From Spirochaetia bacterium (GTDB lineage: Bacteria > Spirochaetota > Spirochaetia > SZUA-6 > Bin103), in NCBI GenBank assembly GCA_965198005.1, contig CBDAOI010000004.1, positions 1,344,001 through 1,408,000 of the forward strand: a stretch of 64,000 nt of DNA, given 5' to 3'. The notes beneath the pieces were generated by a model. It did no database searches. It saw only the letters and a program-made list of their open reading frames with translations, and was not told the DNA's origin. This document shows positions 126-26,240 of the stretch, piece after piece. The translations under genes were made by a program, and so were the position numbers. The stretch's first letter is position 1. Each line of letters starts with the position of its first letter.

Positions 126-282
126 CGAAGGCGGGATGCCCGGTCGGCGACCCGGGGGCGGCGCGCACTCAATTGAGCATCGCTCGTTGGCCTTGATCCG
201 GTGCTTGGCGCGACGGGGACCACCACGCAGCCCGCGCTGCCTTGGAGAACCTGAAACACACCGGGCGCTGGCTGGACCTGCG

Positions 283-1944
283 TCAGAAGCCGACCGCGTA
301 ACCGTCTCTGCGCGGATCCGAGCCGCCCAGCAGGGCGCCGGTGGCGGGATCGAGGCGGATGAACTGGGCGTTCCCGAGCGTATCCCAGGGGCCGACGGTC
401 CGGATGCGGTGCCCCTTGCGCTGCAGGGCGGCGCGCACCGCCGGCGGGAAGCGCGTCTCCAGTTCCAGCCGGTCCTCGCAGGTGTGGGGGACGGTGGACT
501 CCATCGGATTCTGCCAACTGCGCCAGCGCGGCGCCTCGACCGCCTCCTGCGGGGTCATCCCGAAGTGGATGGCGCTGGTGAGGAGTTGGAGGTTGGTCTG
601 GACCTGCGTGTCCGCCCCCGGCGTGCCGCAGACGATGACCGGGCGGCCGGCGCGCGTGACGATGACCGGGTTCATCGTGTGGCGGACCCGCTTGCCGGGC
701 GCCAGCGCGTTGGGGTGGCCGGGCTCGAGATGCCAGAAGGTCATGCGGTTGTTGAGCAGAATGCCGGTGTTGCGGGGGATCAGGCAGGAGCCGAACGCGG
801 TCTGGATGCTCTGCAGCAGGCACACGGCGTTGCCCGCGCCGTCGGCGGTGCACAGGCAGGTGGTGTCGCCCGGCTGGTCGGCGCGGAGCGGGGCGCCGGG
901 ACCGACGCCGGGGGTGGTGCGCGCCAGGTCGATCGCGGCCGCCCGCTGGCGGGCGTAGGCCTTGGACAGCAGGCGGTCGAGCGGCACGTCGACCCAGTCG
1001 GGATCCGCCACGTACCGTTCGCGGTCGGCGAAGGCGAGCCGAATCGCCTCGACCATGAGGTGGATGCTGTCGGCCGACAGGCAGCCCATGCCGGCGAGGT
1101 CGAACCGTTCGACCAGGTTGAGCGCCTGCAGCAGGACGTGGCCGCTCGAATTGGGCGGCATCTCGTACACCCGATGGCCGTGGTAGTCCACCTGGATCGG
1201 CTCGTCCCAGCGGGCGTGGTAGGCGGCGAGGTCGTCCTCGTCCAGCACGCCGCCGTGCGCGCGGCTGGCCTCCCCGATCCGACGCGCGATGGCGCCTTCG
1301 TAGAACCCCGCGCGCCCCTGCTCGGCGATCCGGCGCAGCGTCGTGCCCAGGTCGCGCTGCACCAGCAGTTCACCCGCGCGCAGCGGGCGCCCGCGCGGCG
1401 CGAACACCGCCCGGGCCGCGGCATCCGTCGCCAGCGACTCGTGCCCGGTCTCCAGAGCCGTGGCCAGCGTGTGAGTCACCGGGAAGCCGCGCTCGCACAG
1501 GTCGACCGCGGGGGCGAGCACCTGGGCAAGGTCCAGCGTGCCGAACCGGCGCTGCGCCAGCAGCCAGCCGTCGACCAGGCCCGGCACCGAGACGCTCAGC
1601 ATGCCGCGCATCGGAATGCCGCCGCGCGCCAGGTAGCGCTCGCGGGTCGCGCGTGCCGGCGCCGGCCCGGTGGCGTTGACGCCGTACGGCCGCCGGGTGG
1701 CGGCGTCGAAGATCAGGATGAAGCCGTCGCCGCCGACGCCCGACATCGCCGGCTCGACCACGCCCACCGCCGCCGCCGCGGCAATCGCCGCGTCGATCGC
1801 GTTGCCGCCCGCCTGCATGATGCGCACGCCGGCCTGGGAAGCGAGCGGATGAGCGGACGCCACCATGCCGTTGAGGCCGGCTACCGACGGCCGGTAGGCC
1901 GGATAGTTGATGCCGTGCGGGCCGCGCGGGGTCGGGAAACTCAC
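283..1944 (-). CDS. ggt: Gamma-glutamyltransferase family protein
   Basis: MVASAHPLAS..GGNAIDAA, SVSVPG, catalytic 'DTTCL' Thr, GTPGAD, GGSDPRRDG; GTG start at 1944 with upstream GAAGGAG. Confidence 0.9.
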   Translation of the reverse strand: MSFPTPRGPHGINYPAYRPSVAGLNGMVASAHPLASQAGVRIMQAGGNAIDAAIAAAAAVGVVEPAMSGVGGDGFILIFDAATRRPYGVNATGPAPARATRERYLARGGIPMRGMLSVSVPGLVDGWLLAQRRFGTLDLAQVLAPAVDLCERGFPVTHTLATALETGHESLATDAAARAVFAPRGRPLRAGELLVQRDLGTTLRRIAEQGRAGFYEGAIARRIGEASRAHGGVLDEDDLAAYHARWDEPIQVDYHGHRVYEMPPNSSGHVLLQALNLVERFDLAGMGCLSADSIHLMVEAIRLAFADRERYVADPDWVDVPLDRLLSKAYARQRAAAIDLARTTPGVGPGAPLRADQPGDTTCLCTADGAGNAVCLLQSIQTAFGSCLIPRNTGILLNNRMTFWHLEPGHPNALAPGKRVRHTMNPVIVTRAGRPVIVCGTPGADTQVQTNLQLLTSAIHFGMTPQEAVEAPRWRSWQNPMESTVPHTCEDRLELETRFPPAVRAALQRKGHRIRTVGPWDTLGNAQFIRLDPATGALLGGSDPRRDGYAVGF

Positions 1945-2257
1945 GCCGGGCCGGTCGCTCCTTCGATCAACCACAGCCCGTCGGCGGCTGCCTGCAGCCC
2001 GTTGGGTTGCGGCCCCGGCGCCCTGAATCTCTGGTCCACGGTCGCCGTAAACAGCAACCCATTGGCAGTGCTCATGGAACGCTGTGTCCTCCTTGGCGCG
2101 GACTATACGGGCTGCGCCATCGGCGGTCAATCGGTTGGGCTTCAGTCGGCGGCCTCAAACAGCCGCCCGAATGCCTCCGGATCAGGCACCTGGATCGCCG
2201 CACGATGCAACTGCCTGAGGCGCCTTCGCGTCGCCGTGACGCCGTGGTGTTTGTGGG

Positions 2258-2286
2258 TAGACGAATACATGGTACTCGTGTATCGT
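2258..2286 (+). promoter_or_regulatory. Putative sigma70 promoter of higBA
   Basis: TAGACG-17 bp-TATCGT just upstream of higB. Confidence 0.45.
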
Positions 2287-2302
2287 GTAACCGGTCAGGC
2301 AA

Positions 2303-2593
2303 ATGATACAGTCCTTTGCCGATGAGACGACCGCGGATCTGTTTCGTGAGCGCAACATGCGTCAATCGAGACGGATTCCACGAGATGTCTGGCGCGCCGC
2401 GCAACGGAAGCTGAAGGCCTTGGACGTGGCGGCCGGGCTCGACGACCTGCGGATTCCCGCAGGCAATCGACTGGAACGGTTGCGCGGTGCGCAGTCCGAA
2501 CTGCACAGCATGAGAGTGAACGATCAGTACCGCCTGACGTTTCGATGGGAGGATGGCCATGCCTACGAGGTCTGCGTCGAAGACTATCACTAG
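2303..2593 (+). CDS. higB: HigB-type (RelE/ParE superfamily) toxin
   Basis: MIQSFAD..DLRIPAGNRLERLRG..HSMRVNDQYRLTFRW..EDYH, typical of the plasmid-maintenance killer family. Confidence 0.9.
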   Translation: MIQSFADETTADLFRERNMRQSRRIPRDVWRAAQRKLKALDVAAGLDDLRIPAGNRLERLRGAQSELHSMRVNDQYRLTFRWEDGHAYEVCVEDYH

Positions 2594-2915
2594 AGACCCG
2601 AGTTGGCTCGGGCCGGCGGTTTCTCCGGGCGAGATGTTGCTCGAGGAGTTCATCAAGCCACTCGGTCTGCGTCAGAAGGATGCGGCGCGGCAGCTTGGGA
2701 TTTCGTTGAATCGGCTGAACGAAGTGGTGCGCGGCCGGCGGCGCATCACCGCGGACACGGCGATAAGATTGTCGAGCCTGTTGCAAACCTCTCCGCAGTT
2801 CTGGATGCGGCTGCAGGCGGACTGGGACCTGCACGAAGCCCTGGAGCGCCGTCCACGGGGGGCCGCACAGGGCGATCTTACCCACCGCACGCGTGCCCGG
2901 CAGCCACGATGTTAA
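2559..2915 (+). CDS. higA: HigA XRE-HTH antitoxin
   Basis: PGEMLLEEFIKPLGL..RRRITADTAIRL..SPQFWMRLQADWDL; GGAGG SD before ATG 2559; overlaps higB. Confidence 0.9.
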   Translation: MPTRSASKTITRDPSWLGPAVSPGEMLLEEFIKPLGLRQKDAARQLGISLNRLNEVVRGRRRITADTAIRLSSLLQTSPQFWMRLQADWDLHEALERRPRGAAQGDLTHRTRARQPRC

Positions 2916-3036
2916 CGGATATTCACCGGGTCTTTACCGGGACTATCCGGGAGTCTCGGTATTTTCGTCGCATTACGAGTCACGACGTTGAAGCAGCAGC
3001 GAACGCGTGGCCGTCGTAGAGGACGAGGTTGCACCA

Positions 3037-3372
3037 ATGACAATGACCAACACGCTACCACACACCGAAGACTCGACCCGGCATCTGGCGCTCCAGTACC
3101 TGGTGCTGGCGTTCTCGCAGTTACGGATACGGGATGAGGCGCTGCGCTACCTGGAGGACCTGCTGACCTACCTGGTCGCCGATCCGGCGGCCCTCCTGCC
3201 GGAAGGCTGGACCCGCGGCGAGCTGGGGGCCGCGTACATCGACAACCTGAGCCGCTACGGGCAGTGCCGGGAGTTCGATTTCCAGTGGCTGCGGGACGAT
3301 CCGGAGTTCCACGGCACCCTGGAGCGCTACCGAGCCAGGTTGCAGGCAGCCACCCCCGCGCCGTCGGCCTGA
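3037..3372 (+). CDS. Hypothetical protein
   Basis: Host-like codon usage, GAGG before ATG, non-low-complexity sequence. Confidence 0.6.
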   Translation: MTMTNTLPHTEDSTRHLALQYLVLAFSQLRIRDEALRYLEDLLTYLVADPAALLPEGWTRGELGAAYIDNLSRYGQCREFDFQWLRDDPEFHGTLERYRARLQAATPAPSA

Positions 3373-3472
3373 GACCGGTCCGGCCGGGCAGTTGTGTTCG
3401 CGTATACCGGAAGAAGGCAGCCATTTGTGGTATGATTTCGTGCGCGGTTGTTGCGGTGGTGGCGTCAGGTGG

Positions 3473-4159
3473 CTACAAGCCGAGCAGGCGCTGCGGCACC
3501 TGGAACACCGCGATCAGGTAGTAGCCGGCGATCGCGACCATCGCCGCGCCCGCGATGCGGTTGATCGGCGACTTGTACCGGGTCAGGAAGCCGATGATTC
3601 TCCTGCCGAAGGCGGCGCCCGCCACCGCCAGCACCAGCAGCGGCGTGCCGATGCCGAGCGCGAAGATCACCGAGTTGAGCGCGTTGAGGCCGAAGTCGCC
3701 GACCGAGAGCGCCAGTTGCTTGGAGAAGAAGGCGCCGATGAAGCCGGGGTTGCAGGGCAGGATGATGAAGGCGAAGAAGGCGCCGTAGCCGAACGCGGCC
3801 GCCACCGGACGGCTCGTGCTCGGCGCCCGCACCACCGGAAACAGGCGGCTGAAGTCGGCGTCGGCCAGCAGCAGCACGCCGATCACGGCCAGCAGCGCAA
3901 AGGCGATCGGCGAGGCGACGCCGGCCACGCCGGTGAGCGACAGCTCCAGCAGGGTCGAGAACACCAGCCCGATCGCCACCATGCAGGCGACCACGCCGGC
4001 CACCACCGCCAAGCCGAGCAGCAGCGGCGGCCGGCGGTCGCCCTCCTGCCGGCGATTGGACAGGAAGGCGATGAAGCCGGGGTACAGCGGCAGCACGCAC
4101 ACCGCGGTCAGCGGCGTGGCGAGTCCGAGCAGATAGCTGGCGGCGAGGTTGGCGAGCAC
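3473..4159 (-). CDS. CcdA/DsbD-family cytochrome c biogenesis membrane protein
   Basis: Multiple TM helices; 'CVLPLYP' and 'ILPCNP' Cys motifs; adjacent to a thioredoxin-like gene. Confidence 0.8.
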   Translation of the reverse strand: MLANLAASYLLGLATPLTAVCVLPLYPGFIAFLSNRRQEGDRRPPLLLGLAVVAGVVACMVAIGLVFSTLLELSLTGVAGVASPIAFALLAVIGVLLLADADFSRLFPVVRAPSTSRPVAAAFGYGAFFAFIILPCNPGFIGAFFSKQLALSVGDFGLNALNSVIFALGIGTPLLVLAVAGAAFGRRIIGFLTRYKSPINRIAGAAMVAIAGYYLIAVFQVPQRLLGL

Positions 4160-15852: not shown

Positions 15853-16884
15853 ATGCTGAAGAGTGTTCAGCTTGGGGGCCGGAGCGGCCTGAGAGTGTCA
15901 CAGTTGGGCCTGGGCACCATGAACTTCGGCGAGCCCGGCCGGGGCCACCAGGGGGACTGGACCCTCGATCCGGATCAGGCCAGGCCGATCTTCAAGAGCG
16001 CGATCGACAACGGTCTGTTCTATTTCGATTGTGCCGACGCCTACGGTCTGGGCGCCTGTGAAACGGTGGTTGGCCGACTCCTCAAGGAGCTGCTGCCCCG
16101 GGACGAGTACGTGTTGCAGACCAAGGTCTCCATGTCGACGGGTCCGGGGGCCAATCAGGGCGGCCTGTCGCGCAAGCACGTCATGGAGGGGGTGGACGCC
16201 TGCCTCCGGCGGTTGGGGCACGACTACATCGACGTGTTGGTGATCCACCGTCATCCGCATGGGGTCCCGGGCCACGTGGCGGTGCCGATCGAGGAGACGC
16301 TGGAGGCGCTGCACGACCTGGTGCGCGCCGGCAAGGTGCTGTACCTGGGCGGCTCGACGATGTTTGCCTGGCAGTTCGCGGAGCTGCAGCTCACCGCCCA
16401 GCTCCACGGTTGGACCAGGTTCGTGACCATGCAGAACCACTACAACCTGATCTACCGGGAAGAAGAGCGGGAGATGAATCCGTACTGCGTCAAGACCGAC
16501 GTTGCGCTCACGCCCTGGTCGCCGCTGGCGCGCGGCGTGCTGACCGGCTCCTACCGCGGCGGATTCGATCAAGGGTCCACCGCCCGCTCGCGGGGGCGGG
16601 ATCGGGTGCGTACCGAAGGGCTGTATCGCGGCCGGCAGGATTTCCGGATCGCCGAGCGGGTAGGGGAGGTGGCGCGCAAATACGGCATCTCGCGCGCTCA
16701 GGTCTGCATCGCCTGGCTCCTGGGCAAGCCCGGAATCGTCGCTCCCACCGTCGGCGTCTCGCAAGTGGCGCAGATCGAAGACCTGGTCGCCGGAACCGCC
16801 CTCACGCTCGCTCCCGAAGACCTCGCCTACCTGGAGGAGCTGTACGAGCCGCTGGTCAATCTGCTGTCGATCGGCACCTCTTGA
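15853..16884 (+). CDS. Aldo/keto reductase
   Basis: LGLGTMNFG, DCADAYG, MQNHYNL, WSPLARG; GGAGG SD. Confidence 0.92.
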   Translation: MLKSVQLGGRSGLRVSQLGLGTMNFGEPGRGHQGDWTLDPDQARPIFKSAIDNGLFYFDCADAYGLGACETVVGRLLKELLPRDEYVLQTKVSMSTGPGANQGGLSRKHVMEGVDACLRRLGHDYIDVLVIHRHPHGVPGHVAVPIEETLEALHDLVRAGKVLYLGGSTMFAWQFAELQLTAQLHGWTRFVTMQNHYNLIYREEEREMNPYCVKTDVALTPWSPLARGVLTGSYRGGFDQGSTARSRGRDRVRTEGLYRGRQDFRIAERVGEVARKYGISRAQVCIAWLLGKPGIVAPTVGVSQVAQIEDLVAGTALTLAPEDLAYLEELYEPLVNLLSIGTS

Positions 16885-16900: not shown

Positions 16901-17005
16901 ATGCCCTTGGCTGCGCAGATCGTCGATCAGCACGTATCCGGCATCATCGAGCGGCACTCGGATGACTTCGGAGTCGACGCACTGTACTTCCGACCGCCGG
17001 ATGAC
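16901..17005 (+). pseudogene. Internally deleted N-terminal relic of an AIPR-family protein
   Basis: MPLAAQIVDQHVSGIIERH joined directly to DDFGVDALYFRPPDD (DxGxDA motif of AIPR N-terminal region); GGAG upstream. Confidence 0.45.
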
Positions 17006-17425
17006 CACCTCCGGGTACGCCCTCTGGCGGCCTGTACTGCAACTCCCGGCGGATTTCATCGGTATTCCGCGATTGTCGAAACAGGTTTTCCATGCGGTGT
17101 CGAACGATGTCGCGAACGACACGGGGGTGACTGAGCGCTCTTGAGGTCGCAATCGTATTGACGAAACGGTCGAGGAGCGAAAGGAGGCCGTCGTCACCGC
17201 TGTTCAGCATTTGCCGAGGGGCAGTTCCGAAATCAGGCAGTTTGGTGTCCAGCCACTCTTCTCCATGGTCGTTTCCCACGGCGGGAATCCAGGCGGCGGC
17301 GTGTCGCGCGGCCCATCAGGCTTCTCGAACAGGCGCGTCAGTCGCTGCTTGATTGCTTCCGGAGCAGGACGAGGTGTCACCTCGATCATTGTCGGCGTCG
17401 TCTCTTGCTTGGACCTTGCGGCCAT
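16944..17425 (-). pseudogene. Degraded MbcA/ParS/Xre-like antitoxin-domain gene
   Basis: EEWLDTKLPDFGTAPRQML resembles the Xre/MbcA C-terminal domain; split over two frames. Confidence 0.35.
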
Positions 17426-17429
17426 CACC

Positions 17430-17490
17430 TTACCCCTTGACGGTGCCGACGGTGAAGCCCTGGATCAGGCGGTCGAGGAACGAGGTAAAG
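17430..17490 (-). pseudogene. C-terminal fragment of carbohydrate ABC permease
   Basis: FTSFLDRLIQGFTVGTVKG*, the typical MalG-like terminal motif. Confidence 0.6.
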
Positions 17491-17530
17491 ATCGCGCACG
17501 TCGTCTCTGCCGTGTTCACTCAGTACTTAT

Positions 17531-17558
17531 TTGCGACAGACCTGAAATGGTGTATACT
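17531..17558 (+). promoter_or_regulatory. Putative sigma70 promoter of the three-gene operon
   Basis: TTGCGA-16 bp-TATACT, 7 nt before ATG 17566. Confidence 0.55.
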
Positions 17559-17565
17559 TGGAGCC

Positions 17566-18756
17566 ATGAGATCACGGACCCACGAAGTCCGAGACACCAT
17601 CCCGCGGCTCCAGCAACTCGTTCCCCATATGCGAGACCAGTTGACCGGCCTGCGCGACGGCGCAACGTTTGAGCACGCTCGACGGCGTTATGCGGGCACG
17701 GTTGACCGACTGAGTTTCCAAGGGCTGGGACGACGAACAGCCAGTCGCGTGGGAGACCAGGACCAGTACTGGTCGCCGACGCGTGAAGTGCTGGATGAGG
17801 CCATGCGCCTTGGATTCGTCGAGCGCCAGAAGCTTCCCTCGTCACGCCGATACGTGGACGCGCATCGACACCGTCAGCATACCCTCACTCAGCTCGGCCT
17901 TCACGCCGCGGAGGAAGCCGAGACAGACATGGCGGCGTTTTGCGACCGACTAGCTGTCGCCGTCTACGACCACCATCCCTACTTCCGCGCCTTCATCGAC
18001 ACGCTGCAGGCCGGGCCAATCGGGTGCCCGGAGGTCGCTGAAGGGGACGTCGAGGAATCTCGCCGCAGCGGCAAGAACACCGAACACTGGGTCGAAATCG
18101 CAAGCCATCGGATTCCCCGCCAGACGACTACCGGCGACGACAAGGCTCGCATCCACGAGGCCATCGTCGCCGTCGTGCGACACCGATTTGGACAGACGCC
18201 GGAGCGGCTCCCCACGAGTAAGCAATTGGCTGAGGCGCTCAACGACGCCTACATTGAAGCCGCTCTCCGTCTCCGTGGCCTCTCGATGGGTGCTATCGAC
18301 CTGAAGGTCATGAAGAAGTGGGGTTCGCAACTGATGCTGCTGGACGAGTCGCGGTACGTTCCCCGGTTCGCGAAGCAGAACATCATCTGGCTTGCCGCCA
18401 ACGTCAGCAACAATGGCGTTGTACGCATACAGCGCAGGACACTAGCGAACTATGAACGCTCAGTGGCCGAAGCAGTCGTTGCCGCCTACAACGCCCAGGC
18501 GGCCACAGAAGATACCAGCCTCAGAGCCCCATATCTTCCGATCTACGGCGTACGCGCACAAGCCGCTTTCGAGCGTCGGGTCACACGCGCCCTCGTCGAC
18601 TTGGTCATCGAGCGGTTGGCCGTTGGCTCCATTCGTGACCTCCACGTTCAAGTGTGGCTTCACCTCGGGAAGACGCGACAGCCGGATTCGGAACCGGTGT
18701 ATCGGCGCGGCGGCAATCGACGATACGAAATCACAATCCAGGCCCCAAGCATCTGA
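17566..18756 (+). CDS. Uncharacterised 396-aa protein, first gene of candidate defence operon
   Basis: Long stop-free ORF; 'TREVLDEAMRLGFVE..HTLTQLG' is winged-helix-like (inference). Confidence 0.8.
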   Translation: MRSRTHEVRDTIPRLQQLVPHMRDQLTGLRDGATFEHARRRYAGTVDRLSFQGLGRRTASRVGDQDQYWSPTREVLDEAMRLGFVERQKLPSSRRYVDAHRHRQHTLTQLGLHAAEEAETDMAAFCDRLAVAVYDHHPYFRAFIDTLQAGPIGCPEVAEGDVEESRRSGKNTEHWVEIASHRIPRQTTTGDDKARIHEAIVAVVRHRFGQTPERLPTSKQLAEALNDAYIEAALRLRGLSMGAIDLKVMKKWGSQLMLLDESRYVPRFAKQNIIWLAANVSNNGVVRIQRRTLANYERSVAEAVVAAYNAQAATEDTSLRAPYLPIYGVRAQAAFERRVTRALVDLVIERLAVGSIRDLHVQVWLHLGKTRQPDSEPVYRRGGNRRYEITIQAPSI

Positions 18757-18768
18757 AAGGAGACCATC

Positions 18769-20037
18769 ATGGCAGTTGACACACTCGACCACATGGAAGA
18801 AGCGTGGAATCTGGAGGCTAATCCGTTTCCCGCGGAGGCCATCCACGCCCAGGACACTCCTTATTCCCCAACCGTCTTCGATGAGGAGGCCCAGGAGTTC
18901 CGTCGGAAACTCATCCGCGGCTCCGTTCGCGGCAACGTAAACATCGGTTTCCTCTGGTCCCAAGGCGCGCAGGCGGACACCGGCTTCGGCAAGACGACCT
19001 TGATGCGTGAGATCACCAAGGAGATCAACCACGACCTGGGAGTCGACACCCTCACGAAGGCGCGCATCGGAGCCGACAAGCAGGTCCCCATAGCGGCCGC
19101 TTACTCCAACTTGAACAACCTCAATGCTTCCGGGCTGTACCCTGTGCTCTTCAATGCGGTCATCGACCTCACCCAGCCGCCGCAGATGGGCACTCCCGTA
19201 CTCGACCAAGCCAGGGCGCGTATTGTGCAAGACCTTGGCACTGCTGACCCCACCCATCTCTACCGTCACGTCACGGACACATGGCTCAACATATGCGGCA
19301 CTGCGCCGCCGTTGCGGCCCGAAGTGGTAAGCGCCTTTGCCGACGCGGGAGCCCAAGGGGTCAAGGCCGCCTTGGGGATGGTGTCCGCGACCGCCCGTCT
19401 TCGCAGCGGACTCCACTATCTCGACTTCGCCCTTGCTGCGCTCGCGGCGGCCGGTGTCGATCATCTGTACCTGATGATTGACCAGCTTGAAGATCTCGCA
19501 ACCACCCGCACCATGACTGCTGCAAAGCGCTCTCGGGAGGTCGGGCGTATCCGGGACATGCTCGAGGGCCCTCCCTATGCCAACAGGGTCCACTTCATTT
19601 TCACCTTCCACAACCGCGCAGCACAGGTTCTCGAACGATTCTGGGAGGAGAATCGGCTACCGCCGTTCGAGATCTCGCGGAGCAACGTCGCATCCGTTGT
19701 CGTACTTCGTGGGCTCAAGGAGGACACTCAGGTGTCCGACCTGCTGCGCGTGTACTTGGAGGAACAACGCGAAGGCCAAGTCGAGGACGACCTGCTTCCC
19801 TTCGACGCCGGCGCGATCACCGTGCTCAGGGAGGTTTCCGATGGTCGGGCGGGAATACTGTTGAACCGTGCACGAGAGATCTTCGACTTCGCCGCCGAAC
19901 ACGGTGCGCCACGCATTACTGGGGAGCTTGCGTCCAGATTCTTCGCCGGAGCCGACACTTCCGACCTCGAGCCGGGAAGCGACGACGGCAGCGGCTCTCA
20001 GGAAGGCGACATCGACGATCTCCTTGGCACCCGATGA
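18769..20037 (+). CDS. P-loop AAA+ ATPase
   Basis: Walker A (D)TGFGKTT, Walker B YLMIDQLEDL, AAA+ lid 'LLPFDAGAITVLREVSDGRAG'; GAAAGGAG SD. Confidence 0.85.
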   Translation: MAVDTLDHMEEAWNLEANPFPAEAIHAQDTPYSPTVFDEEAQEFRRKLIRGSVRGNVNIGFLWSQGAQADTGFGKTTLMREITKEINHDLGVDTLTKARIGADKQVPIAAAYSNLNNLNASGLYPVLFNAVIDLTQPPQMGTPVLDQARARIVQDLGTADPTHLYRHVTDTWLNICGTAPPLRPEVVSAFADAGAQGVKAALGMVSATARLRSGLHYLDFALAALAAAGVDHLYLMIDQLEDLATTRTMTAAKRSREVGRIRDMLEGPPYANRVHFIFTFHNRAAQVLERFWEENRLPPFEISRSNVASVVVLRGLKEDTQVSDLLRVYLEEQREGQVEDDLLPFDAGAITVLREVSDGRAGILLNRAREIFDFAAEHGAPRITGELASRFFAGADTSDLEPGSDDGSGSQEGDIDDLLGTR

Positions 20038-20044
20038 CGAGATC

Positions 20045-20812
20045 ATGCCGCGCGATCTCGAGCTCCTGGCCGAGTTCTCTCTGGACTCCTGGCTGCTAGC
20101 CCGGTCCACCCATCATACCTGCACGTCGCCAGTCGACGGGCGGGCCTGGGAGCGAGCCATCGGCGATCTGCTGCGGCGCGCTCCATTGCCCAACCGCCAA
20201 CGCGCCGGCTGGACGACCCTTTTCGGGGTCCAAGCGGCGTCTGGCGTGGCGCACGAGCTTGACGCATGTGCCGCGGGCGGCGGAACTCTGATAGTCGTGG
20301 AATGCAAATCGCAGACTTCGGGCGTGGCGAAAGCCGATGCAGCCTTGCTTCACGAGAAGACGCTTGACTTCTTTTGCGCGAAACCCGGCCACTTCTGCAA
20401 CCAGCGTTGGTGGCGAGTCGTCGCGTCGTCTACTCCGGTTGCGGACAGTGTCCGGGCATTCTGCGTCAGTCTCGGACTCGTTCTCACCGAACCCAATTAC
20501 TTGCCGCTACCTGTCGTGCTACGGATCGCGTCCCGGCCGGGTGCTGACATGCATCTGAGGGAGGCGTTGCTTCAGGACGCGGTTCGCCTAGGCGAACGCG
20601 CCTTGGTGCCGCAGCAGGACAAGTGGCGATACGACGCTCAAGCCGAGGAGATTCGCTTCCAGCCTACGACTCTGGCTCCCAACGAAATCCAGGATCTTCT
20701 CTGGTTACAGGGAGAGCTGGGTTCCGATATTCTTGACCTATACGATCTTCACCGCCCCGGCGCACTGGAACGTCGAGCAGAGGAACTTCTCCGGACGCTA
20801 CGTCCCACATGA
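20045..20812 (+). CDS. PD-(D/E)XK restriction-endonuclease-like protein (Mrr-like)
   Basis: GRAWE...SGVAHELDA...IVVECKS catalytic pattern; begins 7 nt after the ATPase stop. Confidence 0.8.
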   Translation: MPRDLELLAEFSLDSWLLARSTHHTCTSPVDGRAWERAIGDLLRRAPLPNRQRAGWTTLFGVQAASGVAHELDACAAGGGTLIVVECKSQTSGVAKADAALLHEKTLDFFCAKPGHFCNQRWWRVVASSTPVADSVRAFCVSLGLVLTEPNYLPLPVVLRIASRPGADMHLREALLQDAVRLGERALVPQQDKWRYDAQAEEIRFQPTTLAPNEIQDLLWLQGELGSDILDLYDLHRPGALERRAEELLRTLRPT

Positions 20813-21074
20813 CTTCATTACTGCCACCGAGTCGTTGCATGCGATCATGTTCGGAGAACGGTGAGCGGAGTCGGCGTCGCCGCGGTCGACTGGTCGCCTA
20901 CCGAACTCAGAATTATTGCCAGAGCTGGACACACCGCGTGCTTGTGGTAGACCGTGGCGCCGTCTCCCACCGCGCTCCGAGCACGGACTACCTGACCGCC
21001 ATCACCACTTTTATCCCGTCCGGCGTCGTGGCACCGATGGCGAATACGATTGGCTTCCCTTGCCCGCCGTCGCC

Positions 21075-21139
21075 GACCTGAGCGCGCGAGGTGCCGTATT
21101 TCCGCGCCCCCTCCCCTACCCTCCAGGTAGGCGAGGTCT
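21075..21139 (-). repeat. Inverted, order-permuted copy of two aldo/keto reductase segments
   Basis: 21075-21120 is the reverse complement of 16659-16704 (3 mismatches in 46); 21121-21139 is the exact reverse complement of 16818-16836. Confidence 0.9.
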
Positions 21140-21579
21140 CCGGTATGCCAGCAGCCAAACGCCTCTTCCGTCTGCTCAATCAGACCCAAAGCACCTGGAC
21201 GGGTGGCTCGCCAAGCCGTGTTGTAGTCAGCCTCATGACGGGCCTCCTGAAGATCGACAAATGCCCGAGCCACCTTCACAAGGTCGGGCTGGAGCGACTG
21301 GCCTTGCAGTCCCGGACTGAGCCTTGGGGCGACGCTCGTACCCGCGAACTGCTGGGCCACGGTCCTCATGTTCGAGTGCGCGAATGCGCGCCTTAAGCAA
21401 TCGCGTAGTGCGTACCGACGTGCGGAAACCATTCGGCATACCGCTTCGTCGACCAACAAGTGGAAGAGAGCGTAGTAGGCAGCCGACACCGCGCGGCGCA
21501 GGCTCGCCTGCAACGGCCGTCTCGATTCCTTGGTGGCAAGATGCCGGGCCTGTCGCAGCAGCTCGTTGTGGAGGCTCAA
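21140..21579 (-). pseudogene. HEPN-domain protein, C-terminus replaced
   Basis: LRRAVSAAYYALFH and LQEARHEADY; TTG start overlaps upstream stop; runs into the AKR-derived fragment. Confidence 0.75.
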
Positions 21580-21851
21580 GACGCGGCCTCGGACAACACC
21601 CCTTCGTGGAACCGTACGTATACCCAATGCGCATCCTCACCAACCCAGTCGCGGACCGAAGCGCGCACAAGTTCCCGCAGATCTGCCCGTTCCTTGGCAT
21701 CGACCTCGTCGTACTCGCGCTCCAGAGTGATCCATACCCAAACCGCTGGTTCGTCTGTCGTGTCGAGGCCCATCTCGACGATCCACGACCTCACGGGCGT
21801 AGGGAGGCCGGAAAGCTCTTTGAGTTTGGACTCGATCTCTGAGACCGTCAT
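21576..21851 (-). CDS. Small protein, probable partner (MNT-like antitoxin) of the HEPN gene
   Basis: GGAGG SD, coupled to the HEPN gene; GLDTTDEPAVWVWI...VYVRF. Confidence 0.6.
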   Translation of the reverse strand: MTVSEIESKLKELSGLPTPVRSWIVEMGLDTTDEPAVWVWITLEREYDEVDAKERADLRELVRASVRDWVGEDAHWVYVRFHEGVLSEAAS

Positions 21852-22010
21852 ACATCCTCCCGTATGCCGAGTAGACCCAATGGCACTCAGGAGAGTCGAA
21901 TTGGTCCATAAGTCTTCCAAGCAACGTAAGCAACATACGCCGGTGCGCAGCCACACTCAAGATGAGAACCCAGCGACAATCAAGAGGGCGACCCGCACCG
22001 TGCTCAGCAG

Positions 22011-22095
22011 TGACTGCGCGTGCGCCGAGGGCAAGCAGATTCGCGTTCGCAGGGCTGTCGAGGTGAGGATGACTTTCCCCGCCGCCGCGTGCTGA
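22011..22095 (-). repeat. Diverged copy of the 3' end of the DprA-like gene
   Basis: Aligns with about 23351-23436 (tgact..tgcgccgagggc..agattcgc..agggctgtcgag.gtgaggat.actttccccgccg.cgcgtgct). Confidence 0.85.
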
Positions 22096-22490
22096 CGGCG
22101 ACACCGAGACGGGCGTTGTTGACGCGCAGGCGTTGGCGCAGGACGGTCCTGGAGAGCGGCTGGCCGGCGCTACGGAGCGCGGCGCGCACCGCCTCGGCGA
22201 GCGGCGGCGGAGCGGCAGCACTGTCGACGATCAGCGAGAGCGGCTGGTCACCGCCGCCTGAGAGGCGCAGCAGGAGCGGGTCGGGAGCGGGAGCTGAGCG
22301 GTGCTCGACGGTGAGTTGCAGACGGTCGTCGGGGCGCCGCACCAGATAGCAGGCGGAGTCGATCCAGGCGTGCAGGTCGGAGGAGCCGCGCAGGGACTGG
22401 CCGAGATTGCGGCGGGAGCGCTTGGCCATGTGGTGGACGAGGACCAGAGCGAGTTGATAGCGGCGGTTGAGGGCGCGCACAAACCCGAGC
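22096..22490 (-). pseudogene. C-terminal fragment of RecA/AAA_25-like ATPase
   Basis: LVLVHHMAK..GQSLRGSSDLHAW..LTVEHRSAPAP. Confidence 0.6.
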
Positions 22491-22599
22491 AGAGAAGAGA
22501 TGTCTGACGCAAGAGACGCTGCCCTGGGATCAGGAAAGCGCCGGCAAAGCGGTTCATTGCCGGTGACTGCCCCTGCTTTCCCAGCTCCGGAGATCTCCG

Positions 22600-22800
22600 T
22601 TTCCTCCAACCTCGCAGGTTGGCGACGACGCGAAACGTCCGATACGCCACGCGTGCTTTCGTTAGCTGTAAGCGTTTTATGTCGTATTCGAGAGTCTTTT
22701 TCAGACGGCCCTTGGAGCGTGGGCCCACGATGACTCGACGGAGTATCAGATCGGGACCGAATGGCCAGAAGTGGTGGCGTCGGTGCTCGCGGGCGTCCAC
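22600..22800 (-). pseudogene. C-terminal fragment resembling DUF2971-type proteins
   Basis: HFWPFGPDLILRRVIVGPRS..TKARVAYRTFRVV. Confidence 0.35.
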
Positions 22801-23201: not shown

Positions 23202-23342
23202 TACTTCCTGAACACGTTAGCGTACTCCATGGTGTACACGGTGGAGGTTGAAGTCAAGCTGGCCACCCTCCGACCGTGCGTTGTCGGTCAGCCCCAGCCG
23301 GCGCCGACGGTGGCTCATTCTGCCTGCCGATGCGCACTGGTG

Positions 23343-24020
23343 TTAGGCCTTGACTACGAGTGCGCCGAGGGCGAGTAGATTCGCATTGGTAGGGCTGTCG
23401 AGGGTGAGGATTACTTTCCCCGCCGTCGCGTGCTTACGGGCGAGGGATTCGGTCTTGCCGCCGGGGGCGGCGTAAGGGATGAAGAGCTCGGTCGCGAATG
23501 CGGCGACGAGATCGTTGCGCTGCGCGGCAAGCGCCGCCGTTGGCCGATGCTTAGAGCGCCCGAACGGGGACAGGATAAGCAATCGGCCCTCGGAGATTGG
23601 CGTACGCCACTCCCGCGGGATGCGCATGTTCTCGATGCTTCGCGCCGGACAGACCACGACACGCGCCGAGCCCCGCAACAGCAAGTCCAGGAACTCTTTC
23701 TCCATCGGCGACTGAAAGCCGCCGATAAGTGTCATGTTCGTGCCTCGAAGCGCGCGAGCGAGATCATAGATCCTCAGTATGATGTCGCCGGGACATCGTA
23801 TCGAGCAGAAGAAGCCGGTGAGCGTTCCGTCGAGTATGCCGATGTCGCCCCGTGCCGTGACCACAAGCGGATGCACGCTGTCGAAATAACGCCGTAAGAC
23901 CGCCGGAGTCTCGGGGGTCCCCGGTTCGTAGCATCTGGTTTGCAGGACGCTTCTCGCAGTGGCTAAGCGCCGGTTGCTCATTCCACGGTGTCCAGCAGTC
24001 GGACGATTTCTTGGGTCCAA
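23343..24020 (-). CDS. DprA/Smf (SLOG-fold) DNA-processing protein-like; start uncertain
   Basis: GFFCSIRCPG, IGGFQSPMEKE, CPARS, LILSPF, RNDLVAAFA..YAAPGGKT. Confidence 0.75.
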   Translation of the reverse strand: MDPRNRPTAGHRGMSNRRLATARSVLQTRCYEPGTPETPAVLRRYFDSVHPLVVTARGDIGILDGTLTGFFCSIRCPGDIILRIYDLARALRGTNMTLIGGFQSPMEKEFLDLLLRGSARVVVCPARSIENMRIPREWRTPISEGRLLILSPFGRSKHRPTAALAAQRNDLVAAFATELFIPYAAPGGKTESLARKHATAGKVILTLDSPTNANLLALGALVVKA

Positions 24021-25444: not shown

Positions 25445-25687
25445 ATGGCAACCAGACCCGTCCAGATCTCGATCGACGAAGAGCTTTTGCGCCGCCTGGA
25501 CGCGGATCCGGACGCCCGGCAACAGGGTCGGTCGGCTTTCGTGCGGACGGCGGTACGGTTCTACCTGGAGGCAAAACAGCGGCGCGAGGTAGAAGCTCAG
25601 CTCGGGCGAGCGTACCAGGGCCGCGCGGATGAATTGCTCGGTGAGGTGGCGGATATGATCACCGATCAGGAATGGCCCGCGAGCTGA
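25445..25687 (+). CDS. Ribbon-helix-helix (CopG) antitoxin
   Basis: RPVQISIDEELLRRLD..GRSAFVRTAV; TTGACA-17 bp-GATGAT 6 nt upstream. Confidence 0.85.
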   Translation: MATRPVQISIDEELLRRLDADPDARQQGRSAFVRTAVRFYLEAKQRREVEAQLGRAYQGRADELLGEVADMITDQEWPAS

Positions 25688-25826
25688 ACCGCGGGGAGAT
25701 CTGGCTGCTCGACCTCCCGCGCCCGGACAAGCGGCGTCCGGTTCTGATCCTGACGCGGCGCAGGCTGATCGGCCTCCTGCACACCGTTACGGTGGTCGCT
25801 ATCACCTCCACCCTTCGCGGCGCCCC
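25672..25826 (+). pseudogene. PemK/MazF toxin, truncated after about 51 aa
   Basis: RGEIW..DKRRPVLILTR..VTVVAITSTLRGAP, then unrelated DNA. Confidence 0.8.
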
Positions 25827-25827
25827 C

Positions 25828-26045
25828 AGACAGCACCTCGCTGATGTTGCACGCCGCCTTGGTGGCCAGCTCCACCGACGACTCTTCAGTGTACCACGCC
25901 AGGTGGTTGCTCACGATCACGTCGTCCAGGCCGGTCAGCGGGCTGTCGGTGGGCAGCGGCTCGGCTTCGAACACGTCCAGTCCCGCCGCCGCGATGGTGC
26001 CGTCGGTCAGCGTCACGGCCAAGGTCGCCTCGTCGACCACGATCA
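25828..26045 (-). pseudogene. C-terminal fragment of D-2-hydroxyacid dehydrogenase
   Basis: VVDEATL..AAAGLDVFEAEPLPTDSPL..SNHLAWYTEES. Confidence 0.8.
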
Positions 26046-26183
26046 AGCATTCCGACACTCCGACATCACATCGCGACTGTCAGCTATGATTTCGTCCACT
26101 TCGCGTACAGCACGAATGGCGTCATCTTCAGCGATGTGGGGCTTCAGATTCGTGATCTTCGTGACCCTCTGTGCGGCGGGCCT

Positions 26184-26240
26184 TGCGTGGGAGAACGGCA
26201 GGTGACCGACATCGTGACACAGCGCTGCCATCCGCAAGAC
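26184..26240 (-). pseudogene. HD-domain phosphohydrolase fragment
   Basis: RMAALCHDVGHLPFSHA. Confidence 0.65.

Follow-up and report, generated by a model that had tools for sequence, protein, structure and literature searches.

What does a tight cluster of three genes do when it recurs in bacteria of several phyla and its products match no catalogued protein family? We address this question for a locus of a Spirochaetia bacterium (assembly GCA_965198005.1, contig CBDAOI010000004.1, positions 1,344,001-1,408,000). This whole stretch of 64,000 nt is referred to here as the window, and all coordinates are window positions. The cluster, which we call the cassette, consists of three open reading frames (ORFs), predicted to encode a DNA-binding protein with several helix-turn-helix (HTH) or winged helix-turn-helix (wHTH) modules (ORF1), an AAA+ ATPase (ORF2) and a PD-(D/E)xK nuclease (ORF3). 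A first-pass annotation, made from the sequence, had proposed them as an undescribed anti-phage system. Following our analyses, the trio is a real, conserved and mobile feature, and we consider it somewhat better than an even bet (a probability of about 0.55) that it works as a self-contained defence cassette, one that moves horizontally and targets DNA in an ATP-dependent manner.

A conserved and mobile three-gene unit

The coordinates of the three ORFs were confirmed, and all are intact and co-oriented, with gaps of 12 nt between ORF1 and ORF2 and 7 nt between ORF2 and ORF3. The window has a G+C content of about 70%, which drops to 61-65% in the stretch from 16.5 to 26.5 kb; the cassette itself is at about 0.61 compared with about 0.70 in its flanks. 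Accordingly with what the first-pass annotation had noted, the G+C content at third codon positions (GC3) of the three ORFs, 0.70-0.74, is lower than the 0.84-0.93 of flanking genes. The cassette is present as a single copy in the host genome and was found in 1 of 40 relatives.

To this local picture can be added 44 fetched loci, which include nine genome loci and 34 metagenome loci (L014 and L020 are near-duplicates, as are L018 and L019). The order ORF1-ORF2-ORF3 is kept in all eight complete genome loci, the ninth ending at a contig edge. ORF1 lies directly upstream of the ATPase gene in 36 of 36 assessable loci (L023 is truncated), and an intact ORF3 lies directly downstream in 25 of 30, so that the conserved three-gene synteny that had been suggested as a check was indeed found. 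In the five remaining loci the nuclease gene is either broken (a frameshift in L016, a truncation in L018, decay in L047) or replaced. The replacements are unrelated ORFs without a Pfam match, one of 573 aa (L033:5901-7619) and one of at least 233 aa (L037:1188-1886), and these may be alternative effectors. Locus L047 also shows, at positions 140-4110, two decayed ATPase-nuclease pairs that are inverted to each other and carry many frame breaks. A distant variant with 24.5% identity is found on plasmid p1 of Azospirillum brasilense (NZ_CP032346.1, L013 6953-13155) with the order ATPase-ORF1-ORF3; there, the trio is followed in the same orientation by a 925-aa UvrD-like helicase, a possible fourth component.

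Close homologues, at 60-95% identity, come from records labelled Spirochaetia, Pseudomonadales, Gammaproteobacteria, Latescibacteria and Alphaproteobacteria. The clearest view of the mobility is given by the one relative that carries the cassette, a genome of the same family in which a homologous block of 3.3 kb is inserted between two host genes that are only 32-50 nt apart in six genomes of the same genus. The right end of this insertion lies about 12 nt past the ORF3 stop codon, and homology between loci stops at such points. Neither a target duplication nor terminal inverted repeats were present at the resolved junctions, and no recombinase, terminal repeat or conserved 3' sequence belonging to the unit was found across the compared loci. 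A transposon or an integron cassette was therefore rejected as a description of the unit, given that no ends, attC-like conserved 3' sequence or recombinase were found. For the window locus itself, the empty site and the junctions could not be placed because the relatives have only an aldo-keto reductase gene in common with it.

A profile of the ORF2 family searched against 1.84 billion representatives returned only 271 proteins at E ≤ 1e-3, and the family is therefore small and isolated. This bears on the simplest alternative, that the trio serves a housekeeping function of the host in DNA repair or recombination. PD-(D/E)xK nucleases and AAA+ loaders do act in repair too, but a gene set found in 1 of 40 relatives, of foreign composition, inserted relative to six genomes of the same genus and belonging to so small a family is hard to reconcile with such a role, which we regard as scarcely credible.

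Traces of the cassette were also found in public sequencing runs. Contigs of 166-460 nt at a depth of 2-4, from four metatranscriptome runs of one study labelled sponge metagenome, match all three ORFs and are spread over 17631-20992, with none over 17300-17630; 7 of the 15 contig pieces match the cassette without any difference, although DNA carry-over is possible and these contigs are no proof of transcription. In seven runs from other studies, of unstated library type but most likely DNA, at least half of the sampled words of the stretch are present.

ORF2, a predicted ATPase of the ORC/Cdc6 clade

No significant match was obtained for ORF1, ORF2 or ORF3 in Pfam, NCBIfam or PADLOC v2.0.0 (the 2023 release of PADLOC-DB), in agreement with the earlier failure to assign the trio to a named system, and with profiles of the three families no PDB sequence was retrieved below E 0.1. 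The domain guesses of the first-pass annotation (winged helix for ORF1, AAA+ for ORF2 and Mrr-type PD-(D/E)xK for ORF3) gained support instead from the VIA structural aligner, Foldseek and hhalign.

From its structural model, ORF2 is best described as an AAA+ ATPase of the ORC/Cdc6 clade. The Walker A and Walker B motifs and the acidic tail that had been picked out are present, and are invariant or nearly so in 30 homologues. The model has a mean predicted local distance difference test score (pLDDT) of 71.8. Foldseek returned 11 matches with it at E ≤ 1e-3, the best being Aeropyrum ORC2 (E 6.8e-5), and the VIA aligner ranked ORC2 (Z 11.9, 200 residues aligned), Cdc6 (Z 10.8) and Cdc6/Orc1 (Z 10.2) above two matches to TnsC (Z 9.8 and 9.5) and one to BrxC (Z 8.7).

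The TnsC matches raise the possibility that the trio belongs to the machinery by which a mobile element transposes or replicates, on the pattern of TnsA/TnsC or of an Orc-type initiator accompanied by accessory proteins. MuB is also among the structural matches of ORF2, the cassette is clearly mobile, and TnsA is a PD-(D/E)xK nuclease that binds TnsC. Against this, ORC and Cdc6 outrank TnsC, the unit contains neither a DDE transposase (such as TnsB) nor an integrase, nor a further conserved gene or element ends; nothing is conserved past the ORF3 stop codon, the junctions described above lack inverted repeats and target duplications, and the cassette is single-copy in its genome. We consider this explanation very improbable.

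A protein language-model atlas places ORF2 near clusters of BrxC_BrxD, AAA_22 and KAP. ORF2 itself has no match at E ≤ 1 to BrxC_BrxD (PF10923, cut-off 22.2 bits), and a genome-wide search with this family passes it over, but two of ten distant full-length relatives score 22.0 and 19.3 bits (E 9e-5 and 6e-4). With hhalign, a narrow ORF2 alignment compared with five BrxD proteins gave a probability of 6.4%, while a broad alignment of the family (37 sequences) gave 89% (E 2.2e-6, 188 columns). From these scores below the cut-off and the hhalign result with the broad alignment, sequence comparison makes ORF2 a remote relative of BrxD, lying outside the BrxC_BrxD family. Other ORFs of the host genome do match BrxC_BrxD, all of them outside the window (G000:C4:248657-250165, 714221-714415 and 1805808-1806224).

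Both termini of ORF2 (residues 4-21 and 414-420) are almost invariant, yet the model has a pLDDT below 50 at both. Conservation of segments without a confident fold suggests that they are docking motifs.

ORF3 and its predicted complex with ORF2

The E..D..ExK pattern read in ORF3 by the first-pass annotation proved invariant: E71, D73 and E86-C-K88 are retained in all 32 homologues. Assigning this nuclease to a family was less straightforward. The Mrr_cat HMM (hidden Markov model; PF04471) matches neither ORF3 nor any of the 32 homologues, whereas the hhalign comparison of a broad ORF3 alignment (43 sequences) with Mrr_cat gave a probability of 39.7% (E 3e-4) over 108 columns, in which the catalytic residues line up. 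The lead from the language-model atlas was also Mrr_cat, annotated in 17% of one cluster (score 0.89). NERD (PF08378, cut-off 22.1 bits) was tried as another candidate and rejected; it scored 13.7 bits (E 0.09) with ORF3 and matched 2 of 32 members, and its hhalign probability of 0.9% equals that of a control comparison of NERD with Mrr (0.8%). Because of these hhalign values, 'Mrr-like' appears the better label for ORF3, if a weakly supported one. The PADLOC scan gave no matches for ORF1 and ORF2, and for ORF3 just CARF_PDDEXK models, with E values of 0.02-0.04 and alignments of about 30 residues. No ASCH domain was hit at E ≤ 1 among the 32 ORF3 homologues with the Pfam sequence HMMs, which alone leave a divergent ASCH possible.

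The multimer prediction proposed as a check also gave a positive result, and ORF3 is predicted to dock on ORF2. The ORF2-ORF3 model scored 0.72, and the best of three controls 0.00. Of 80 solved complexes 58 score this high, as do 2 of 110 mismatched pairs, which is a rough guide since own alignments were used. The runs share at least 25% of contacts, with a partner pLDDT of at least 85, and the predicted interface brings ORF3 residues 162-184 together with ORF2 residues 206-216 and 248-256. Conservation at the interface was not counted as support because it is weakly raised in ORF3 (0.80 versus 0.67, p 0.03) and not raised in ORF2.

ORF1, a predicted protein with multiple winged helices

The AlphaFold2 model of ORF1 is of higher confidence, with a pLDDT of 85.5 and a predicted template modelling score (pTM) of 0.84. 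The VIA aligner splits it in two, at residues ~6-290 and 295-396. The first part resembles the recognition domain of FokI (Z 7.6, 184 residues aligned), N.BspD6I (Z 7.4) and PaqCI (Z 7.2), and also BrxA (7zge, Z 7.2, 157 of 199 residues) and 3bhw (Z 7.7); the second resembles the winged helix of SAMD1 (Z 8.2). Foldseek gave nothing at E ≤ 1e-3 with the same model; SspB chains 6juf and 6lb9 are among its rows with E values that are not significant (0.15 and 0.58), and no DndG chain is among the structural matches listed for ORF1.

At the sequence level, none of the 273 homologues of ORF1 carries a Pfam domain. When 32 homologues were scanned singly against Pfam there was no significant family, and BrxA (PF08849) had no match at E ≤ 1. 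A fold class made of several HTH/wHTH modules is thus well supported by the models, and membership of a particular family is not. ORF1 is not hypervariable.

A promoter with a covarying palindromic operator

The promoter named by the first-pass annotation, TTGCGA and TATACT with a 16-nt spacer, is present upstream of ORF1 and is the sole promoter-like site within 17000-21400. As 0.9 such sites are expected by chance in this interval, one site does not exceed expectation, and the promoter is credible because it is conserved in the homologous loci. No terminator-like site was detected in 17000-21400.

In the homologous loci a palindrome straddles the -35 box, with the form TCA-NNN-CTC / TTGCAA / GAG-NNN-TGA. 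The NNN triplet differs by clade (GGT/ACC, CGT/ACG, CAT/ATG or TAT/ATA), and both arms change together. In 18 of 30 loci, the 100 nt upstream contain a palindrome that agrees, at its best placement, in at least 8 of 9 arm positions, and homology between loci starts just upstream of the palindrome. These compensatory half-site changes, which follow the clade of the cassette, speak for a dimeric repressor that the cassette itself encodes, for which ORF1 would be the obvious candidate. In most loci 5-9 nt separate the end of the -10 box from the start codon, a distance at which the mRNA is probably leaderless.

Table 1. Positions of the cassette and its features in the window
Feature	Position	Strand	Description
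Transferable unit, approximate	17495-20825	+	From operator to ~12 nt beyond the ORF3 stop; ends in the window placed by analogy with other loci
Promoter and overlapping palindromic operator	17520-17558	+	Left arm 17520-17528, right arm 17537-17545
-35 box	17531-17536	+	TTGCGA; 16-nt spacer to the -10 box
-10 box	17553-17558	+	TATACT; ends 7 nt before the ORF1 ATG
ORF1	17566-18756	+	396 aa, predicted multi-(w)HTH DNA-binding protein
ORF1 FokI/BrxA-type recognition module (predicted)	17614-18435	+	Residues ~17-290
ORF1 C-terminal winged helix (predicted)	18448-18753	+	Residues 295-396
ORF2	18769-20037	+	422 aa, predicted ORC/Cdc6-clade AAA+ ATPase
ORF2 conserved N-terminal peptide	18778-18831	+	Residues 4-21
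ORF2 Walker A	18982-18999	+	GFGKTT, residues 72-77
ORF2 Walker B	19477-19494	+	IDQLED, residues 237-242
ORF2 conserved C-terminal tail	20008-20028	+	DIDDLLG, residues 414-420
ORF3	20045-20812	+	255 aa, predicted PD-(D/E)xK nuclease
ORF3 catalytic residues	20255-20308	+	E71, D73, E86, K88; E-D-ExK core
Part of the ORF3 C-terminal helical region	20528-20596	+	Residues 162-184, predicted ORF2 contact

Genomic neighbourhood

Domains of the methyltransferase, PglZ, SMC or Toprim type are absent from the database matches of ORF1-ORF3 and from the Pfam matches of ten neighbour ORFs, as had been claimed from inspection of the sequence. Among other loci, the flanks were scanned in two sets. For 118 flank ORFs of 11 loci, PADLOC returned a single AbiEi/AbiEii pair besides some matches that were weak or generic, and by Pfam the same set contains two IS66 and two further DDE transposases as well as two integrases. 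The second set, 109 flank ORFs from 19 metagenome loci, gave strong matches to AbiE, IetA/IetS, QatA, PDC-S24, PDC-S66 and a Type II methyltransferase. When ten ORFs of this second set were re-scanned, PDC-S24 was located 150 nt upstream of the cassette in L016 and IetS 360 nt upstream in L045, QatA was found in L017 and a type IIG-like gene in L046, and the remaining six were without a match. Further loci have AbiE pairs. These raw neighbour counts, made with no background comparison, are suggestive of some loci lying in defence islands.

Since AbiE and Iet are abortive-type systems, their position beside the cassette in other loci would also suit an abortive infection mechanism, in which ORF1 and ORF2 would respond to a phage protein or to an intermediate of replication by releasing ORF3, which would degrade all DNA including that of the host, so that the cell dies. 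The lack of a modification gene for self-protection fits with this, as does an operator placed over the -35 box, where tight autoregulation would suit a toxic effector; Avs and RdrA, related ATPases of the ORC/STAND type among the structural matches, work in this manner. However, ORF1 resembles the DNA recognition parts of restriction enzymes (FokI, PaqCI, N.BspD6I) and not a protein sensor, and the sequences give no sign of toxicity or of a trigger. On balance we find abortive infection rather unlikely.

In the window, the cassette sits on the margin of a block of fragmentary genes. The 3' end (16658-16837) of the aldo-keto reductase gene at 15853-16884 recurs inverted past the cassette at 21062-21143, in two pieces of 60 nt (87% identity) and 24 nt (96%) with about 97 nt absent between them, and remnants of a convergent paralogue therefore bracket the cassette. 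A further broken aldo-keto reductase paralogue is located at G000:C4:894809-895397. Beyond this, a direct repeat of about 100 nt with 81-92% identity (22000-22098 and 23340-23439) copies the 3' end of an ORF with weak similarity to DprA, located at 23343-24020 on the minus strand (Pfam DNA_processg_A, E 0.004, below the cut-off). Two overlapping gene fragments on opposite strands occupy 25666-26205: one, from 25672, corresponds to the N-terminal 50 residues of a PemK/MazF-type toxin (E 4e-7), and the other (25666-26058, minus strand) to the C-terminal end of a 2-hydroxyacid dehydrogenase. A PDB sequence search with the neighbour ORFs at 21144-21627 and 22004-22609 gave no matches.

A position amid such a junkyard of fragments could also be expected of a selfish module acting in addiction or in competition between elements, where loss of the cassette or entry of a rival triggers damage by the nuclease and any benefit to the host is incidental. 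Such a module could well be this compact, with its own promoter and operator, a clean insertion without a recombinase, spread across phyla at 60-95% identity and decayed copies like those in L016, L018 and L047. The cassette nevertheless has no antitoxin-like or methylase partner to create addiction. There is strong overlap here with the defence reading, inseparable by sequence, and we judge selfish maintenance to be distinctly unlikely.

Comparison with known systems

The class to which the trio is closest has been predicted computationally. Operons that combine an Orc/Cdc6 ATPase, a restriction endonuclease (REase) fused to an ASCH domain and a triple-wHTH protein resembling DndG have been described as predicted anti-invader systems (Rakesh, Aravind & Krishnan, NAR 2024, PMC10853773). 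The cassette shares with these operons an ATPase of the ORC/Cdc6 clade, a restriction-type nuclease, a mobile neighbourhood without a modification enzyme and, more tentatively, a multi-wHTH protein of the FokI/SspB/DndG kind. It differs in that ORF3 shows no ASCH by Pfam and carries at its C-terminus a helical region through which it is predicted to contact the ATPase. Both an ORC/Cdc6 ATPase and an REase with intact catalytic residues are found in the cassette, and we regard it as a variant of this Orc/Cdc6 + REase + triple-wHTH class. The term 'undescribed' used by the first-pass annotation must therefore be narrowed: the class had already been predicted, while no experimental study of such a trio was found in the literature searched, and the supplementary lists of PMC10853773 and PMC12839542 may include the family.

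There are also clear similarities to parts of BREX. BrxA consists of two HTH modules that are homologues of the FokI and BpuJI DNA-binding domains and of SspB, at times with an extra C-terminal wHTH (PMC12839542), and the same arrangement of FokI-type modules and C-terminal wHTH is seen in the ORF1 model, with middling Z scores of 7.2-7.7. ORF2, a predicted stand-alone AAA+ ATPase of the ORC/Cdc6 clade, appears remotely related to BrxD. On the other hand, PglX, PglZ, BrxC, BrxB, BrxL and BrxHI are lacking from the cassette, ORF1 and ORF2 fall below Pfam thresholds, and the effector would be a PD-(D/E)xK nuclease. The genes that define BREX (PglZ, PglX or PAPS reductase, and BrxC) are absent both from the three-gene unit and from the scanned neighbours in the window. 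Compared with SspB-SspC of the SspABCD phosphorothioation systems (PMC10853773), the cassette is without the SspA/SspD sulphur-transfer machinery and without SspE. Mrr-type (Type IV) endonucleases share with ORF3 the D...ExK core, aligned in register over 108 columns, and the lack of a cognate methylase, but ORF3 does not have the N-terminal DNA-binding domain of Mrr and would rely on two partner proteins. Because the defining genes of each are absent, the cassette is not BREX, Ssp, Dnd or Tn7-like.

These likenesses can be combined into a more specific proposal, that the cassette is a minimal stand-alone restriction engine, in which a BrxA/SspB-type reader and a BrxD/SspC-type loader are wired to an Mrr-like nuclease under a co-evolving operator and without a modification enzyme. 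We put this forward tentatively, as a possibility with the odds against it.

A proposed mode of action

Returning to the reading that we prefer, that of an ATP-dependent DNA-targeting defence cassette, a mode of action can be suggested from the predicted parts. ORF1 would read DNA through its FokI/BrxA/SspB-type multi-winged-helix module, and ORF1, or else the winged helix of ORF2, probably binds the palindromic operator as a repressor of the cassette's own promoter. ORF2, as a small BrxD-related AAA+ of the ORC/Cdc6 clade, would assemble on DNA marked by ORF1 and act as an ATP-driven switch, with its helical insert holding ORF3 through the C-terminal helices of the latter. ORF3, the Mrr-like PD-(D/E)xK nuclease, would then cleave the DNA. 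Given that there is no modification enzyme and that ORF1 is not hypervariable, non-self would most likely be sensed by a generic mark, for example modified phage DNA as in the logic of Type IV systems, and not by a strain-specific sequence. We infer the cleavage of DNA, the order of these events, the rule for distinguishing self from non-self, the identity of the repressor and the leaderless transcript, and the same applies to the anti-phage function and the sequence of sensing, remodelling and cleaving put forward by the first-pass annotation.

Several observations weigh against this reading. Relatives of ORF2 were found neither in phage records nor in viral contigs, so that there is no direct link to phages. 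The structural Z scores of 7-8 for ORF1 are in a middling range where the aligner warns of a common arrangement, and the Mrr_cat link of ORF3, at 40% probability, is weak. One of the three ORF2-ORF3 complex runs scored 0.01, and the ORF2 side of the predicted interface is conserved to about the same degree as the rest of the protein (0.80 versus 0.75 elsewhere, p 0.23; 0.39 versus 0.40 in the broad alignment). The window's own operator is imperfect, with 6 of 9 arm positions matching. By Pfam, the 118 flank ORFs of 11 loci are chiefly metabolic and transport genes, six of the ten re-scanned neighbour ORFs of the metagenome loci have no PADLOC match, and the neighbour counts that suggest defence islands lack a background for comparison.

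Significance

The cassette brings together three proteins without a Pfam, NCBIfam or PADLOC v2.0.0 family in a tightly conserved operon that moves between phyla. If it defends cells, it would be a compact immune system of 3.3 kb with portable regulation. A transcript that is probably leaderless may be one reason why the genes can be expressed in hosts that differ widely. Should the tentative reading as a minimal restriction engine be true, the trio would represent a new family of modification-independent or modification-dependent restriction, and it would offer the simplest experimental handle on the role of the reader and loader pair in BREX and Ssp. The cassette links modules that are little understood, BrxA/BrxD and SspB/SspC, with a nuclease whose activity is a simple and assayable read-out. 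The covariation of the operator also offers a model in which to ask how specificity and a mobile cassette evolve together.

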